Source: an uncultured delta proteobacterium (GTDB taxonomy: Bacteria; Desulfobacterota; Desulfobacteria; Desulfobacterales; B30-G6). From it: a stretch of DNA of 64,000 nt. The translations under genes and the position numbers were made by a program. Under the pieces are notes generated by a model, which was not told the origin of the DNA, did no database searches, and saw only the letters and a list, made by a program, of their open reading frames with translations. The DNA lies in contig CAWGLD010000003.1 of NCBI GenBank assembly GCA_963823335.1, forward strand, positions 1-64,000, in the 5' to 3' direction. Shown here one piece after another: positions 16,828-26,409 of the stretch (position 1 is its first letter; every line of letters begins with the position of its first letter).

Positions 16828-19800
16828 ATGTCGAATAGACCTTCGGCCACAAAGCGCATTCGAAAGAATTTTGGTAAAATACGTAAGATAGTGGATATTC
16901 CGGACCTGATTGGTATGCAGAGGGAATCCTTTGCACGTTTCCTGCAAATGGATATCCCTCCGGAACAAAGAGAGGAGATTGGCCTGCAGGCTGTATTCAA
17001 GTCCGTATATCCGATCAAAGATTTTACCGGTAGCGCTTCTCTCGAATTCGTCTCCTACCGATTTGGAGAAATCAAGCACAGCGAAGAGGAATGTGTTCAA
17101 AGGGGCATGACCTATGAGCTGCCTGTACGCATTACGGTTCGTCTTGTTGTTTACGAGGTAGATAAAGAATCCGGCGTGTCCAATATCCGTGACATCAAAG
17201 AGCAGGAAATCTACTTTGGAACGATTCCCCTTATGACGGAAAAGGGGACTTTCATCATTAACGGAACCGAGCGTGTCGTTGTAAGCCAGCTGCACCGGTC
17301 GTCCGGCGTATTTTTCGACCATGACAAGGGAAAGTCACATTCCAGTGGTAAAATTATATACAGCTCGCGGATCATACCGGTACGGGGTTCCTGGATCGAC
17401 ATGGAAATCGACCCCAAAGATATTTTGCACATCCGAATCGATCGGAGACGCAAATTTCCGATAACGATTCTGTTCAAAGCCTTTGGTTATTCAACCCAGG
17501 ATATCCTTTCCTATTTTTACAGTTTTGACCGGATCTTTTTAAAGGGCAAGAAAATTCTCAAAGCCTTCAACCCGGAACTTCTGAAGGGTCAACGGGCCGC
17601 CGAAACTATCAAGGATCCTGGATCTGGAGAGGTCATCGTTAAGAAAGGGCGTATCTTCACCAAGCGGTCTCTCAAACAGATGACCGACAGCGGAATCGAA
17701 ACAATTCCCGTCAGCAGAGAATCGCTGGAAAATCGTATCTCGGCCTATGCCATTAACGATCCGGAAACCGGTGATGTGCTTGCCGGGCCCAATACGATAA
17801 TAGATGTGGAAATTCTGGACCGGATCCTCGAATCAGGTATCACCGAATTTGAGATCCTGCACATTGACGGTGTTACAAGCAGCGAATCGATTCATAAAAC
17901 CCTCAATCTCGACAAAGTAGAGAAAAAGGAAGATGCCCTGATAGAGATTTACAGGCGCTTGAGACCCGGGAATCCTGCAACACCTGAAGTGGCTCAGGAT
18001 TTCATGGATCATTTGTTCTTCAAGTCGTCTTATTATGATTTATCAAGTGTCGGCCGGCTCAAATTGAACTTGCGATTGGGTATTGAGACGCCGATACAGC
18101 TCAGAACACTCAGGAAAGAAGATATTTTTCTGACGGCCAAGACACTTCTGGCGCTCAAAGATACACAGGGCGTTGTCGATGATATCGATCACCTGGGCAA
18201 TCGTCGCGTGCGTGCGGTGGGCGAGCTTCTGGAAAACCAGTACCGTATCGGACTGGTGAGGATGGAACGGGCCATAAAGGAGAGGATGAGCCTTCAGGAG
18301 GTCGATGCGCTTATGCCGCATGATCTCGTCAATCCCAAACCGGTTTCAGCTGTCGTCAAAGAATTTTTCGGAACGAGCCAGCTCAGCCAGTTCATGGACC
18401 AGACCAATCCGCTGTCCGAGACTACACATAAGCGGCGACTTAGCGCCTTGGGGCCGGGCGGACTGACGCGTGAACGGGCCGGATTTGAAGTCCGGGATGT
18501 GCACCCTTCACATTATGGCAGAATCTGCCCCATCGAAACTCCCGAGGGTCCCAACATCGGTCTGATTGTCTCCCTGAGCACCTATGCGCGGGTGAACAAT
18601 TTTGGATTTATCGAAACGCCTTACCAGGTTGTTGAGAATTCCAAGGTAACCGACAAGGTCAAATTCCTGAGCGCCTTCGAAGAAAAAAAACATCCTATCG
18701 CCCAGGCCAACGCCACCATCAACGCCAAGAGGGAATTTGTCAATCAACTGGTAACGTCCCGGGTTGAGGGTGAGTTTATGATGGTCAACCGGGAGGATCT
18801 CGAGTTTATGGACATTTCACCCAATCAGCTCGTGAGTGTGTCCGCCTCTTTGATTCCCTTCCTCGAAAACGACGATGCCAACAGGGCCTTGATGGGATCC
18901 AACATGCAGCGGCAGGCTGTACCGTTGATCATGAACGAAGCACCACTTGTGGGTACCGGTATAGAAGGTGTTGTTGCCAAAGATTCCGGTGTCACCATTG
19001 TGGCGGGCCGGGATGGGGTTGTGGAGGATGTCGATGCTTCCCGAATCGTCCTTTCACACGGCCGGACCGATGATGGATTTGAAAAGCCGGTGACCGTTTA
19101 CAACCTTTCCAAGTTCAGCCGTTCAAATCAGAACACCTGCTTTAACCACCGGCCCATTGTCAGAAAGGGTGACATCATTTCAGCCGGTGATATCATCGCA
19201 GACGGGCCTGCCACTGACCAGGGAGAGCTCGCCCTCGGGAAAAACGTTACCGTGGCGTTTATGCCCTGGGGGGGATATAACTTTGAAGATTCAATCCTGG
19301 TGAGTGAAAGACTGGTTCGGGACGGCACCTATACCTCTGTGCACATCGAAGAATTCGAGGTGGTCGCCAGGGACACCAAACTGGGCAAGGAAGAAATAAC
19401 GAGAGACATCCCGAATGTCGGTGAAGAGGCGCTCAAAGACCTGGATGAAAGCGGAATTATACGACTCGGAGCCGAGGTGACCCAAGGGGATATTCTGGTT
19501 GGGAAAATTACACCCAAGGGCGACACACAACTCTCACCCGAAGAAAAACTTCTGCGGGCGATATTCGGTGAAAAGGCCGGAGACGTCAAGGATACATCTC
19601 TGCGCGTACCACCGGGTGTTGAGGGTATCGTCATCGATGCCAAGGTCTTCGCCAGAAGGGGGACCGAAAAAGATGAACGGGCCCAACTCATAGAGAGTGA
19701 GGAGGTCGGCATACTTGAAAACAACCGGGATGCCAAACTAGTTGTCATGAGCGAGATGATGCAAACCCGGATCGAGGAGATCCTGGTGGGGCAAAAATGC

Positions 19801-20922
19801 GCATCACCCCTGAAAAAAGGCCAAAAGACGCTTCTCAAGAAAGATAAACTGATCGACAGAGACATGTTGAAAGGCATCCCCGTGGCCCATTTTGAAGGCA
19901 TTGTTTTGGGCGATGCGGAAATCACCGAGAAGGTTCACGATAACCTGGAGCTCTATCGCAAGGAGCAGGAACGTGTACGGGATGAGTTCGAGGGCAAGCT
20001 TCTTCGGTACGAAAGGGGCGACGAAATGCCGCCGGGTGTCATCAAGATGGTCAAGGTATATGTGGCCATGAAACGCAAACTCTCTGTGGGCGACAAGATG
20101 GCCGGACGGCACGGCAACAAGGGTGTCGTGTCCAGAATCCTGCCGGTGGAAGACATGCCGTATTTCGAGAACGGCGAAACCGTGGACATGGTCCTCAACC
20201 CATTGGGTGTCCCATCGCGTATGAACGTGGGCCAGATTCTGGAGATTCATCTGGGATGTGTGGCAAAAGGTCTCGGCGATCAACTCAACCAGTTCATGAG
20301 AGACAATGAAATGAATCTGATCCGGGAAAAGATGAAACGGATCTTTGACGACGACGCTATTCATCAGATGGTTCAAAAGATGGATGACGGTGAATTGAGG
20401 GATTTTACTCAGGGATATGCCAATGGCGTTCACATGGCCACTCCGGTATTTGACGGTGCAAAAGAAGATGAAGTGAAAGCCCTCCTGAAAGAGGCTGGAC
20501 TGTCCACGACCGCTCAGACGACACTTTATGACGGTCATACAGGCGAGGCCTTCAAGGGAAAAATTACCGTGGGTACCATGTACATGCTGAAACTGCATCA
20601 TTTGGTGGACGATAAAATTCATGCCAGATCCATCGGACCCTATTCCCTGGTAACCCAGCAGCCACTGGGAGGCAAGGCACAGTTCGGCGGCCAGCGTCTC
20701 GGGGAAATGGAGGTCTGGGCCATGGAAGCCTATGGCGCTGCGCATGCTCTCCAGGAATTCATTACCGTCAAGTCAGACGATATGGCCGGTAGAACACGGA
20801 TGTACGAAAAGATCGTAAAAGGTCAGAATGTGCTGGAACCCGGCATACCCGAATCCTTCAAGGTCCTGACAAAGGAACTGCAGAGTTTAGGTCTGGACGT
20901 AACGCTCCTGGAAGAAGGTTGA
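16828..20922 (+). CDS. rpoB: RNA polymerase beta subunit
   Basis: 1364 aa with [24 protein letters not shown] and GGQRLGEME. Confidence 0.99.
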
Positions 20923-20953: not shown

Positions 20954-23900
20954 ATGGATACATTATACGATTTTTTTGCCAAGCCCAAAGACCCAAAGAT
21001 ATACAGTGGTGTTCGAATATCGCTTGCATCATCGGAGCAGATCCTGCAGTGGTCCAGTGGCGAGATCAAAAAGCCGGAGACGATCAATTACAGGACGTTT
21101 AAACCGGAGCGGGACGGTCTTTTCTGTGCAAAAATTTTCGGCCCAACCAAGGACTATGAATGTAACTGCGGTAAGTACAAGCGCATGAAGCATCGTGGTG
21201 TTATCTGTGAGAAATGCGGGGTTGAAGTCATTCAGTCCAAAGTGCGGCGGGAGCGGATGGCCCATATTGCCCTGGCAACACCGGTATCCCACATCTGGTT
21301 TTTAAAGAGCCTGCCGAGCAAGATCGGGAATTTGTTGGACCTGACATTGAAAAACATGGAGAAGGTTCTGTATTTCGACAGCTACATCGTGACTGACCCG
21401 AAAGATACAGGTCTGACAAAATGCCAGCTGCTGACCGACGAAAAATACCGCGAAGCCCAGGAACTTTATGGATCGAAATTTGAAGCGGGCATTGGTGCGG
21501 AAGCCGTCAAGAAACTCCTTGAGGAGATCGATCTCGAAGCGCTCTATGTCCAGCTCCGAGAAGATATCCGGGCCACAAACTCCATTGCCAAACGGCAGAA
21601 ACTTTCCAAGCGGCTTAAAATCGTCGATTCTTTTCGACGATCCGGGGTCAATCCGGTGTGGATGATCATGGATGTCATCCCAGTGCTGCCCCCGGATTTG
21701 CGCCCTCTTGTGCCACTGGAGGGCGGACGTTTTGCAACCTCCGATCTGAACGATCTTTACCGAAGGGTTATTAACAGAAACAACCGCCTGAAACGGCTTA
21801 TGGACCTGAAAGCACCTGATATCATTGTTCGTAATGAAAAGCGGATGCTTCAGGAATCCGTGGATGTGCTCTTTGACAACGGACGGCACGGCAGAGTTAT
21901 TACCGGGTCCAACAAACGGCCTCTGAAATCCCTGAGCGATACCCTGAAAGGTAAGCAGGGACGGTTTAGACAGAACCTGCTGGGCAAGCGTGTGGATTAC
22001 TCCGGACGAACCGTTATTTCGGTGGGACCGGAATTGCGACTTCACCAGTGTGGTTTGCCCAAGAAGATGGCACTGGAACTTTTCAAACCTTTTGTCTACT
22101 ATCGACTCGAACAGAAAGGCCTGGTTTCCACTGTCAAAAGCGCCAAGAAAATGGTCGAAAAAGAAGTTCCGGAAGTTTGGGACACCCTAGATGAGGTGGT
22201 AAAAGAATACCCAGTGCTTCTGAACCGTGCCCCGACACTTCACCGTCTGGGTATACAGGCGTTTGAGCCGATACTCATCGAGGGCAAGGCGATTCAGCTG
22301 CACCCGCTGGTTTGTACGGCATTCAATGCAGACTTCGATGGGGATCAAATGGCGGTACATGTACCCCTGTCCGTTGAATCCCAGATTGAAGCACGCGCAT
22401 TGATGCTTTCCAGCAACAACATTCTATCCCCTGCAAACGGCAGCCCCATCATCGTACCCAGTCAGGATATCGTTCTCGGTATTTATTATATGACCAGGTC
22501 CATCGAAGGTGCCAAGGGGGAAGGACGGCTTTTTTCAAATCCTGAAGAGGTGCGCTCTGCATATGATGCCCGTTCTGTCGAGCTGCATGCCCGCATAACT
22601 GTCAGAATAGCGGGTACGCGTGTGCAAACCACTGTTGGCCGGATTCTGCTCTGGGAGATCATGCCCAGGGAAGACATCGTGCGGTTAAGGCATATCATGG
22701 CAACTGACGAGAAATCTGCGCGAACCGTTCTGAAAAAAATCAACGATGGCGAAACCTTTATCAGCCTGGTTGAGGCCTACTCTGAAAGTGCGGACAAACG
22801 CTTCGACGGTGACATCGGTCTGGTCAAAAAGCGTGATCTCACCGAGATCCTGTATATCGACACAACCGATGCCGAGAGTCTGTTTGCCATGCATGAGGGT
22901 GAAACCAGCGGCATTATCATGTCCAACGATCTGTCCTTTCATCTGTTCGAGGTTGTCGAAAAACGACCCGAAATACCATTCAGCATCGTCAACAAGGTCA
23001 TGGACAAGAGCGAGCTCAGAAATATTGTTGACTATGCTTACCGGAACCTGGGACCGAAGGCGACCGTTATCCTGGCAGACCGCCTGAAGAATATCGGCTA
23101 CAAGTATTCCACCAAAGGCGGTCTGTCCATTTCCATCGATGCCATGATTATTCCAGATGCCAAGTGGGACATTCTCAAGGCCGCTGAAACCCGGGTCACG
23201 GAAATCGGCCGGCAGTATACCGAGGGCCTCATCACCCAGGGCGAGAAATACAACAAAGTCGTCGATATATGGGCCAAGGCAACGGATGATGTTGCAAATG
23301 AGATGATGGACTCCATGAAGAAAGCCCCTGTTGTCGACAAAGACGGAAACCCGGTTCTGGGTAAGGACAATAAACCCGTTGTCATGGAAAGCATGAATCC
23401 GATTTATATGATGGCGGATTCCGGAGCCCGGGGCAGCAAGGATCAGATGCGACAGTTGGCCGGTATGCGTGGGCTCATGGCCAAACCATCCGGCGAGATC
23501 ATTGAAACGCCAATTACGGCAAACTTTCGTGAGGGACTGTCTGTTCTGCAGTACTTTATCTCCACGCACGGCGCCCGAAAGGGGCTGGCGGACACCGCGC
23601 TTAAAACGGCGAATTCCGGTTATTTGACCCGAAGATTAGCCGATGTTGCCCAGGATTGCATTATCCTGCAAGATGACTGTGGCACCATGATGGGCGTGGA
23701 AGTGGAGCCGCTCATGGAAGGCGGCGAGGTGATACAACGCCTGTCTGAACGTGTTCTGGGAAGGACGGCCCTCGAAGACATTCTGGACCCGTTTACAGAC
23801 AAGGTGCTGGTGAAGGCCGGAGAAGAAATCGATGAAGCCGCTGTAGATCTCATCGAAAACGCGGGCATAACCAGCGCGAAAATCCGTTCGGTCTTGACAT

Positions 23901-25357
23901 GTAAGGCCGAGCATGGTGTATGCGCGGGTTGTTATGGTCGGGATCTTGCTTACGGAAAGAAAGTGGAGATAGGACAAGCCATCGGTATCCTGGCAGCTCA
24001 GTCCATCGGTGAACCCGGTACCCAGCTGACCATGAGGACCTTTCATATCGGTGGTACCGCGAGCCGGCGGGTAGAGCAGGCAGATATCCGCGCACGTGTC
24101 GAAGGTACTATAAAGTTTATCGATCTTGATGTCGTGAAGAATGCCGACAATAAATATGTGATCATGAACAGGCGGGGTGGTGAATTTGCCATTGTCAGCG
24201 ACTCCGGGCGTGAGCGGGAGCGATTCTCGCTTATTTACGGCGCCCATCTGGATATCAAAGACGGCGACAATGTCGAGGCCGGAGATCTGCTGGCCCACTG
24301 GGACCCCTTCACCACGCCGATCCTTTCGGAAGTGAATGGAACCGTCAAGTTCGGTGATCTGGCTCTCGGGAAAACACTCCAGGAAAAAGTGGATCCTGTT
24401 ACAGGTAAGTCGAGCCGTACTGTTATCGAATCTAAGACCGCGGAAGAAAGACCCAGGATCTCCATCAAGGACAAGGAGGGCAAAACCGCTTCCCTGCCGA
24501 AAAAAACCGGCCAGGCCAGATATATACTGCCCGTAAATGCCATTCTCCTCGTTGAGGAAGGTGATACCATCCAGGCGGGTGATGTGCTTGCCAAGCTGCC
24601 GAGAGCCACCACGAAAACAAAGGATATCACCGGTGGTCTTCCAAGGGTTGCAGAGCTTTTCGAAGTCAGGAAACCCAAGGAGATATCCGTTCTCAGCGAA
24701 ATCGACGGTTATGTATCGATTGCCAAGGGAACCAAAAAGGGTAAGCAGAAAATCACGGTTGCACCGGTGGATGTAGGTGAGAAAAAGGAATACCTGATTC
24801 CCCGGGGAAAACACATCAATGTCTATGAGGGGGATTATGTGCGAGCCGGAGAGCCCTTGATCGGTGGTTCAGCTATTCCCCAGGATATCTTGAATATCAA
24901 AGGTGAAGTAGCTTTGGCGCGATACCTCGTGGATGAGGTGCAAGAGGTATACCGGCTCCAGGGTGTCCGTATTAACGACAAGCACATCGAGGTGATTGTC
25001 CGGCAGATGATGCGCCGGGTAAAGGTTCGTGAAATTGGTGATACAGATTTCATTGTCGAGGAGCAGGTCGATAAAATCATTTTCGAGACGTCTAACCGGG
25101 CGGTCATCGAAAAAGGCGGCAGACCCGCTGTTGCTGAGCCCCTGATTCTGGGTATTACCAAGGCTTCACTGAGTACGGAAAGCTTTATTTCAGCGGCCTC
25201 TTTCCAGGAGACTACCAAGGTTCTGACTGAAGCCAGTATTTCCGGAGCAGTGGACCAGTTGCGGGGTCTGAAAGAAAACGTGATCATGGGCAGGATCATA
25301 CCGGCTGGAACTGGTTTGAAGATCCACCGGGATGTCCAAATCGAGCAAGCGGAATAA
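20954..25357 (+). CDS. rpoC: RNA polymerase beta' subunit carrying a ~100-aa parvulin-like insertion
   Basis: 1467 aa with the NADFDGD catalytic motif, zinc fingers and [13 protein letters not shown]. Extra domain at aa 572-672. Confidence 0.99.
22667..22969 (+). other. Parvulin/PpiC-type PPIase-like domain inserted in frame in beta'
   Basis: [66 protein letters not shown] follows the parvulin pattern (RHIL..A..L..G.dF..LA..YS..GDLG..AF.L..GE.S..V..GYHIIKV). Confidence 0.85.
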
Positions 25358-25523
25358 CTTTGCAGCTGTCAATCGGGGGGCATTGATAATATGCGGCGAA
25401 TTCCAAGAAATAAATAGATAAATTGCTTGACAGCCCCATGCAAAATGTATACATATTCGCTTTTGTGCGATGATGCAAATTTTGCTGATGTAACTATTGA
25501 AAAACACATTAAATGAGGAGCGT

Positions 25524-25895
25524 ATGCCAACCATCAACCAGTTAGTCAGAAAGGGTCGCAAAAGGGTAATCAAGAAAACCAATACACCGGCTCTAAAGCG
25601 GGCACCCCAGAAGAGAGGCGTCTGTACGCGTGTTTATACATCGACGCCAAAGAAACCGAATTCGGCCCTGCGTAAGGTTGCAAGAGTCAGGCTGACCACC
25701 GGAATTGAAGTGACAGCCTATATCCCGGGTATCGGTCACAATCTGCAGGAGCATTCGGTTGTTTTGGTTCGCGGTGGGCGTGTAAAGGACCTTCCCGGTG
25801 TTCGTTACCACATTGTGAGGGGGACCCTCGACACACTGGGTGTGGCGGAAAGAAAGCAGGGCAGGTCCAAATACGGTGCAAAGAAACCAAAATAG
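25524..25895 (+). CDS. rpsL: 30S ribosomal protein S12
   Basis: [20 protein letters not shown] and GGRVKDLPG. Confidence 0.99.
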
Positions 25896-25938
25896 TTAAA
25901 GACTCAGGATCAAGGTACGAACCAAAAGGATTTAGAGG

Positions 25939-26409
25939 ATGCCAAGAAGAAGAGAAGTACCGGAACGCGTTATCATTCCAGATGCAAGGTTTAACAGCCA
26001 GCTGGTATCGAAGTTTATCGCCTGCATAATGCGGGATGGCAAAAAGAGTACTGCAGAGTCAATCCTCTATGGTGCATTTGGTATCATAGAAGAAAAAACG
26101 GGTAAGCCACCGCTGAAGATCTTTGAGCAGGCGGTAGACAACACCCGTCCCATGATTGAGGTCAAGTCACGGCGGGTAGGCGGATCGACCTACCAGGTTC
26201 CCACAGAGATCAGGCCTTCGCGCAGAACGGCCCTGGCCCTTCGTTGGCTGATCAATTATGCCCGGAGCCGTTCAGAAAAAGGAATGGCTGGAAAGCTTGC
26301 TGGAGAATTTCTGGATGCAGCCAACAACCGGGGAGCGACCGTCAAGAAGAAAGAAGACACGCACAAAATGGCCGATGCCAACAAAGCGTTCGCACATTAC
26401 CGCTGGTAG
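25939..26409 (+). CDS. rpsG: 30S ribosomal protein S7
   Basis: [17 protein letters not shown] and [10 protein letters not shown]. Confidence 0.99.

Follow-up and report, generated by a model that had tools for sequence, protein, structure and literature searches.

A parvulin-type domain inserted into the RNA polymerase beta' subunit of Desulfobacterales

Introduction

Lineage-specific insertions are the main way in which bacterial RNA polymerases differ from one another, and the few that have been studied, such as SI3 of Escherichia coli, affect pausing, regulation and the binding of factors. Here we describe an insertion in rpoC, the gene for the RNA polymerase beta' subunit, in a 64,000-nucleotide stretch of DNA from an uncultured delta proteobacterium of the order Desulfobacterales (positions 1 to 64,000 of contig CAWGLD010000003.1, assembly GCA_963823335.1, forward strand; the whole stretch is called the window below). 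An initial annotation, made from the letters of the window, had read a 101-residue segment of the encoded protein as an in-frame parvulin-type peptidyl-prolyl isomerase domain. This reading was followed up computationally with respect to the identity of the segment, its physical reality, its active-site residues and its distribution among related genomes.

Results

Position of the insert within rpoC

The rpoC gene is an open frame, and its product matches Pfam RNA_pol_Rpb1 domains 1-5 (E between 1e-79 and 1e-19) and contains the active-site motif NADFDGD. The gene, the insert, its junctions and the residues discussed in this work are located as follows.

20954-25357, plus strand: rpoC (RNA polymerase beta'), host gene of the insert, open reading frame (ORF) of 1467 amino acids (aa)
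22628-22666, plus strand: N-terminal junction, conserved core, aa 559-571, aligning up to residue 585 of solved beta' chains
22667-22969, plus strand: insert with predicted parvulin fold, aa 572-672 (101 aa), in frame within rpoC
22691-22693, plus strand: His580, codon cat, first His of the dual-His motif (strand 1)
22811-22813, plus strand: Asp620, codon gac, in G-D-I-G, aligned to the catalytic Asp of PrsA GGDLG
22835-22852, plus strand: D-L-T-E-I-L (aa 628-633), counterpart of the M-x-x-x-F pocket segment, after which the insert family has about 5 extra residues
22922-22924, plus strand: Ser657, codon tcc, aligned to the Thr/Ser of the parvulin active-site network
22940-22942, plus strand: His663, codon cat, second His of the dual-His motif (last strand)
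22970-22996, plus strand: C-terminal junction EIPFSIVNK, aa 673-681, aligning from residue 587 of E. coli-type chains and conserved in relatives
23057-23059, plus strand: Lys702, 30 residues past the insert, at the place of E. coli beta' Lys615 in the alignment

The translation gives exactly the insert sequence and the flanks on which the initial annotation was built. Its statement that the flanks are contiguous in E. coli beta' was examined by aligning aa 501-752 of RpoC to the sequences of solved structures, and it agrees with the result: query residues 1-71/72 correspond to beta' chain residues 501-585 and query residues 174-251 to residues 587-664 (1407-aa E. coli chain, 251 entries, and others). 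In solved beta' chains the residues on either side of the insert are thus neighbours (E. coli-type 585/587), and none of the 38 distinct beta' sequences of solved structures matched at E <= 1e-20 aligns with the insert region. When the span across the junctions was cut from relatives of the phylum, it measured 22 residues in those without the insert versus 121-124 in insert-bearers (122 here). The insert-less relatives have their flanks joined, EILPE being directly followed by EIPF, and the core at the N-terminal junction is conserved in relatives both with and without the insert.

The insertion site falls into a loop of Pfam Rpb1 domain 3, in the beta' 'pore 1' region, just past the bacterial-specific domain bD4 and at the start of the second segment of uD3. 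A position about 30 residues before the helix of ppGpp site 1 had been proposed, which fits the place of Lys702 (query residue 174 being chain residue 587); its E. coli counterpart Lys615 is a residue that we take to contribute to this site.

Junction-spanning contigs and composition

Contigs from runs of other studies were placed on positions 22400-23250, and both junctions are crossed without an indel. A DNA contig of another study covers 22459-23013 with 2 differences, and a second one covers 22456-23250 with 8 differences. Contigs of two metatranscriptome libraries (22585-22780 and 22481-22795) cross the N-terminal junction, and in one library a contig at 22820-23076 also crosses the C-terminal junction; since an RNA library can contain DNA, these bridging contigs are not claimed as transcription. 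A joint that skips the insert or an indel was found in none of the contigs of any run placed on this interval, and the coverage gaps in runs X4, X5 and X9 are contig ends and not evidence.

The GC content of the insert is 0.495 and its GC3 0.604, compared with 0.516 and 0.584 for the rest of rpoC, which lies inside the variation among 303-nt windows of rpoC. An intein was considered and rejected: the insert starts with Arg-Glu-Asp and ends with Lys-Arg-Pro followed by Glu, so that there is neither a Cys/Ser/Thr start nor a His-Asn end followed by Cys/Ser/Thr. The Pfam scan detected no Hint or intein family but only RNA polymerase and rotamase families and weak matches of the barrel-hybrid type. 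The open ORF, the junction residues and the GC and GC3 values together bear out the intact frame, the lack of intein motifs and the host-like codon style that had been noted from the sequence.

Homology to parvulins and predicted fold

Searched alone, the insert scores 29.7 bits (E 1.3e-6) with Pfam PF00639 (Rotamase), whose curated cut-off is 21.7. The Pfam scan of full-length RpoC yields only sub-threshold rotamase matches, to PF13145 (Rotamase_2; 19.5 bits versus a cut-off of 27) and to PF13616 (Rotamase_3). With the single insert as query, phmmer finds the parvulin domain of Bacillus subtilis PrsA (1zk6) at E 2e-6, and a profile of 24 orthologous inserts searched against the Protein Data Bank (PDB) finds PrsA at E 2.5e-14, followed by SurA, PpiC-type, Pin1, Par14 and Par10 proteins.

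The insert was modelled with AlphaFold2 from an alignment of 74 distinct inserts, giving a pLDDT of 96.7 and a pTM of 0.89. In insert numbering, the model consists of a strand at 4-12, helices at 15-26, 31-38 and 42-46, a strand at 49-53, helices at 55-60 and 66-73 and a strand at 91-100, and this order of elements is that of parvulins (strand, three helices, strand, helix, helix, strands). The parvulin fold has a four-stranded antiparallel sheet and runs strand, three helices, strand, helix and two strands, and the model agrees with it. The listed Foldseek matches of the model in the PDB are parvulin-type domains with TMq values of 0.68-0.82, and 83 matches have E <= 0.001; PrsA (4wo7, TMq 0.80) is followed by SurA, PpiD (2kgj), Par14, Pin1 and Par10. 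Pfam, profile search, predicted fold, Foldseek and motif order thus agree with the assignment to the parvulin/PpiC type. The homology of the insert to parvulins is established, and its parvulin fold is predicted by the model. The first strand of the model starts at insert residue 4 and the last one runs to residue 100 of 101; with nearly no linkers left, the domain should sit fixed on beta' and not swing on a tether.

The free-standing domains closest to the insert, as found among 1.84 billion representatives, belong to proteins of about 300 aa with the architecture SurA_N plus Rotamase. Whole RpoC inserts reach profile scores of 112-132 bits, whereas the top-scoring free-standing domain does not exceed 73 bits.

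Conservation of active-site and pocket residues

Residue columns were compared between the 74 distinct inserts and 189 free-standing parvulin domains, using one profile for both (hmmalign). Both histidines of the dual-His motif had been reported as retained, which is confirmed by their codons in the window and by the family: the His580 column contains His in 59/74 inserts and in 109/189 free-standing domains, and the His663 column in 71/74 and 121/189, respectively. Asp is present in the Asp620 column in 17/74 inserts versus 92/189 free-standing domains, the other 57 inserts having Leu, Val, Ile, Asn, His, Met, Phe and other residues at this place. Ser or Thr is found in the Ser657 column in 24/74 inserts versus 150/189 free-standing domains. 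The combination His-Asp-His is retained in 17 of the 74 inserts, and together with Ser/Thr in 10, which come from this genus, from the relative nearest to it and from one further lineage.

The counterpart of the M-x-x-x-F segment is diverged and slightly longer, as had been described. Leu629 falls on a column that is mainly Met/Leu in the free-standing domains and Leu633 on one that is mainly Phe (hmmalign), and about 5 extra residues are present. Across the 74 inserts the two pocket columns contain Phe (51) or Leu (17) and Phe (49) or Tyr (16), and the window has Leu at both. Further columns kept in the inserts are Gly619 (70/74), Gly622 (72/74) and Phe665 (74/74). Most surface positions are variable; charged columns at Arg579, Asp614 and Lys615, the acidic positions 628 and 639, and Lys670 (RpoC numbering) are conserved at 82-93%. 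The net charge is negative in 68/74 inserts, with a mean of -5.7, which makes nucleic-acid binding as in Par14 unlikely.

Judged from these columns, selection has preserved the fold, both histidines and a hydrophobic groove but neither the catalytic Asp nor the Thr/Ser. In Pin1, the two histidines reportedly play a structural rather than a catalytic part. As a general reading, the built-in prolyl isomerase of the initial annotation is therefore not upheld, given the low counts of Asp and Thr/Ser; it survives for this genus, which keeps His-Asp-Ser-His and in which prolyl isomerase activity is possible.

Distribution, history and selection

Among the 41 nearest genomes, 34 have the whole insert in an RpoC-size frame. 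In one (G006) the contig ends within the insert, and in two (G021 and G034) the flanks are contiguous and the insert is lacking. Three genomes (G009, G016 and G029) gave no flank match; their rpoC region is probably missing from the assemblies, and they are uninformative on the insert. The 20-contig assembly G015 contains an rpoC frameshift with a stop inside the parvulin insert (locus L124, G015:C12:25300-28900); as rpoC is essential, an error of assembly is a likelier cause than a pseudogene.

Of 401 genomes sampled evenly across the phylum, 14 belong to the order of the window, and each of these contains the insert. Outside this order, none of the listed matches in the 401 genomes covers the insert within an RpoC-size frame, and the partial matches there fall into open frames with lengths of 292-338 or 636 aa that encode free-standing parvulins. 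The 249 genomes of the sample without a match at E <= 1e-8 are uninformative, the 40-residue flanks alone scoring near the threshold. In a named genome collection, 204 stretches encode a relative of a 181-aa single-protein query. The best 80 of them all span the whole query at 49-87% identity and carry the insert. Their titles almost all read Desulfobacterales, Desulfobacteraceae, Desulfococcaceae, Desulfosalsimonadaceae, Desulfobacter, Desulfatibacillum, Olavius symbiont or 'Deltaproteobacteria', with a few bins labelled otherwise. A collection of 5.8 billion proteins contains 240 proteins of RpoC length that match the insert region. The length of the insert is 98-103 residues in 74/74 distinct inserts.

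A maximum likelihood tree was calculated from 43 RpoC pieces from which the insert had been removed (quick search, root not inferred). All 25 insert-bearers are located on one side of a branch with an SH-aLRT support of 99, and G021 is on the other side. G034 is nested among the insert-bearers, together with L017 and L019 (SH-aLRT 97). At least 2 changes in insert presence are required on this tree, with one loss among the 26 rows of the insert side, and the simplest history is one gain after the split from the family of G021 followed by one loss. The insertion is ancient and vertically inherited across nearly the whole order Desulfobacterales, and was most simply gained in an ancestor of most of its members.

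The G034 locus (L123, G034:C343:9700-12900) is a natural deletion, in which the junction reads LLWEIIPKDEVGPPVQFSIVN with a 6-residue scar, KDEVGP, in an RpoC frame of 1378 aa.

In six same-genus pairs, the insert has a dN/dS of 0.19-0.26 and the flanking core, with about 1000-1080 codons, one of 0.016-0.034, which indicates purifying selection on the insert. Host-like composition, a dN/dS of about 0.2 and vertical inheritance together support the suggestion that the domain has been domesticated, and the restriction to the order (14/14 sampled) gives the distribution that the initial annotation had left to be mapped.

RpoC frames of other lengths were also observed: 1656-1697 aa in G186, G277, G305, G333 and G353, 2297 aa in G174 and 1579 aa in G348, and G154 has a 1448-aa RpoC without the parvulin insert. 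Within the order, frames of 1511-1563 aa (G019, G404, G020, G027, G023 and G038) carry the parvulin insert, and their length suggests further lineage-specific insertions elsewhere in beta'.

Other parvulins of the genome and rejected functions

This genome encodes three free-standing parvulin proteins (L125, L126 and L127, on contigs C1, C2 and C4 of G000). They have 630, 328 and 333 aa when the first start codon is used, and each opens with a hydrophobic segment of the anchor or signal type. A small cytoplasmic parvulin of the PpiC type was not found in the Pfam search of this 94%-complete genome. Given the anchor or signal segments of the three free-standing proteins, this search leaves no cytoplasmic parvulin domain other than the insert.

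Two further ideas were dropped. A replacement of omega by the insert does not fit the presence of rpoZ (PF01192) in 40/41 relatives, which include insert-bearers and both insert-less genomes. A distribution complementary to that of a small cytoplasmic parvulin was not observed either: all five insert-less genomes checked have only parvulin frames of at least 259 aa, and one of five insert-bearers has a parvulin of 93 aa.

Genomic setting of rpoC

The rpoB and rpoC genes form a pair in the usual arrangement, rpoB being located directly upstream.

16828-20922, plus strand: rpoB (RNA polymerase beta), ORF of 1364 aa, identified from its translation and its position before rpoC

Downstream of rpoC, a 156-aa ORF at 25939-26409 resembles ribosomal protein S7, as judged by its translation. 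The gap at 25358-25938 has the size expected for rpsL, which would give the standard rpoBC-rpsLG order. Minus-strand ORFs of 154-392 aa lie opposite rpoB and rpoC (19804-20745, 21302-22045, 22685-23569, 23636-24814 and 24835-25299), and we attribute these antisense ORFs to the codon bias of the genes on the sense strand. In the relatives L019 and L026, the antisense frame is the longest ORF of the locus.

Discussion

Interpretation of the insert

We consider the insert to be, with moderate confidence, a rigid, acidic and mostly non-catalytic binding or structural parvulin module of beta'. According to this proposal, a single parvulin domain of the PpiC/PrsA type entered a loop of the 'pore 1' region of beta' in an ancestor of most Desulfobacterales and has since been retained under purifying selection. 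Grafted nearly without linkers, it would be fixed on the surface of the polymerase. Its conserved job would be non-catalytic, either as a peptide- or protein-binding groove for a putative partner or as a structural buttress of beta'; we infer this from the preserved fold residues, histidines and pocket, from the replacement of the catalytic Asp and Thr/Ser in most inserts and from the net acidic charge of the domain. A parvulin on the transcription machinery has a bacterial precedent, since the free E. coli parvulin PpiC co-purifies with NusG, Rho, SuhB and RpoA according to the published account (PMC7353009). Several observations pull the other way. The full set of His580, Asp620, Ser657 and His663 is intact in this genome and genus, and the 189 free-standing domains used for comparison include multi-domain SurA-like proteins with degenerate domains and understate the conservation in active parvulins. 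The G034 lineage lost the domain, so that it is not indispensable, and the evolution of the insert, about 10 times as fast as that of the core, would suit a passenger under weak constraint as well.

The polymerase might instead contain a working prolyl isomerase, at least in this genus, whose intact His-Asp-Ser-His network would drive the cis/trans isomerisation of a prolyl bond in beta' itself or in a sigma or other transcription factor. This has some appeal. The four residues, present as a full set in 10/74 distinct inserts including that of the window, match the His, Asp, Thr/Ser and His columns conserved in free-standing parvulins, the Pfam search of the genome would leave no cytoplasmic parvulin domain besides the insert, and E. 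coli PpiC pulls down NusG, Rho and RpoA (PMC7353009). We nevertheless regard it as doubtful: with 57/74 inserts lacking the Asp and only 24/74 having the Thr/Ser, activity is not what was conserved, and the Met and Phe positions of the pocket are Leu and Leu in this genus. Moreover, none of the five insert-less relatives checked has a small cytoplasmic parvulin that would compensate, and one of five insert-bearing genomes has the 93-aa parvulin in addition. A more specific version, in which the fixed parvulin domain of this genus, with its acidic rim and its four network residues, captures a proline-containing segment of a factor docking on the polymerase (for instance NusG, Rho, a sigma or an anti-sigma factor) and isomerises it, is rather unlikely in our view; if it were true, it would mean a prolyl switch in bacterial transcription control and a cis-acting counterpart of Pin1/Ess1 on RNA polymerase II.

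The fast evolution of the insert, its mostly variable surface and the deletion in G034, where the rpoC frame is otherwise normal, would also be expected of a structurally tolerated passenger that has no specific function but is well folded and hard to remove from an essential gene. Such a passenger seems improbable to us, as the dN/dS indicates clear purifying selection, the length stays within 98-103 residues in all 74 inserts, the conservation of the charged columns goes beyond the needs of a hydrophobic core, and just one loss is required among the 26 insert-side rows of the tree. That the insert is an artefact or a selfish element, be it an assembly chimera, an intein or a recent mobile insertion, is hardly credible. 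A single assembly of the metagenome-assembled genome (MAG) type can in principle be chimeric, and nothing else in favour was found; the junctions are spanned by independent contigs of other studies, the insert recurs at the identical site in 204 stretches from other assemblies, the junctions lack intein residues, the composition is host-like, the distribution follows the RpoC tree and the Pfam scan shows only RNA polymerase and rotamase families besides weak matches of the barrel-hybrid type. A rigid, mostly non-catalytic module therefore remains the reading that we prefer.

Relation to known insertions and parvulins

In being in frame, domain-sized, located in a loop between conserved beta' regions, lineage-restricted and vertically inherited, the insert resembles SI3/beta'i6 of E. 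coli (in the trigger loop), beta'i2 of Thermus and Si3 of cyanobacteria. A survey from 2024 assigns beta' insertions at seven sites to HABAS (sandwich-barrel hybrid), BEAN or small-left-claw domains (PMC11515920), and its text contains none of the words parvulin, PPIase, rotamase, isomerase and Desulfo. Unlike these catalogued types (HABAS/SBHM, BEAN and small left claw), the insert has the fold of an enzyme or chaperone, the parvulin fold predicted by the model.

The best matches of the insert in sequence and structure are foldases of the PrsA/SurA type (SurA_N plus Rotamase, about 300 aa). In structures of this type the parvulin domain is likewise inserted, with both ends close together. The insert differs from these foldases in that its host is the RNA polymerase and its location cytoplasmic rather than extracytoplasmic, and the RpoC inserts form a separate group by score. 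They resemble the P1 domain of SurA and the parvulin domain of PpiD in a retained fold with degenerate catalytic residues, both of these domains being reportedly inactive and client-binding; the comparison with SurA P1 and PpiD goes along with a dual His that is better retained in RpoC inserts than in the free-standing set.

With Pin1/Ess1, which is tied to RNA polymerase II's carboxy-terminal domain (CTD), and with E. coli PpiC (Par10), the insert shares a link between a parvulin-type domain and the transcription machinery; the action of Ess1 on this CTD is described in PMC7994582. Pin1/Ess1 and PpiC are separate, active isomerases that work in trans, whereas the insert is covalently part of beta'. 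In addition, Pin1 and Ess1 recognise phospho-Ser/Thr-Pro through a basic patch, whereas the RpoC insert is net acidic.

The initial annotation had presented the insertion as possibly new. No printed description of a parvulin insertion in beta' was found in the full-text literature, a search outside of which lie Lane & Darst 2010, Iyer et al. 2004 and supplements (including Table S4 of PMC11515920), where a mention is possible. That part of the claim stands to this extent, but the domain itself is already marked in public annotation, where 92/120 listed homologues have a pre-computed PF00639 hit. NCBI names two partial RpoC proteins (P0048 and P0084) 'peptidylprolyl isomerase, partial', and the inserted domain appears to mislead the automatic naming of RpoC fragments.

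An insertion with the fold of an enzyme or chaperone that was fixed through the history of a major order of sulfate reducers widens the small set of folds known for beta' insertions. The defined domain of 101 residues, the deletion that occurs naturally in G034 and the catalytic-residue variants found in nature also make a testable handle, with which it can be asked whether modules of the prolyl isomerase type act in bacterial transcription.

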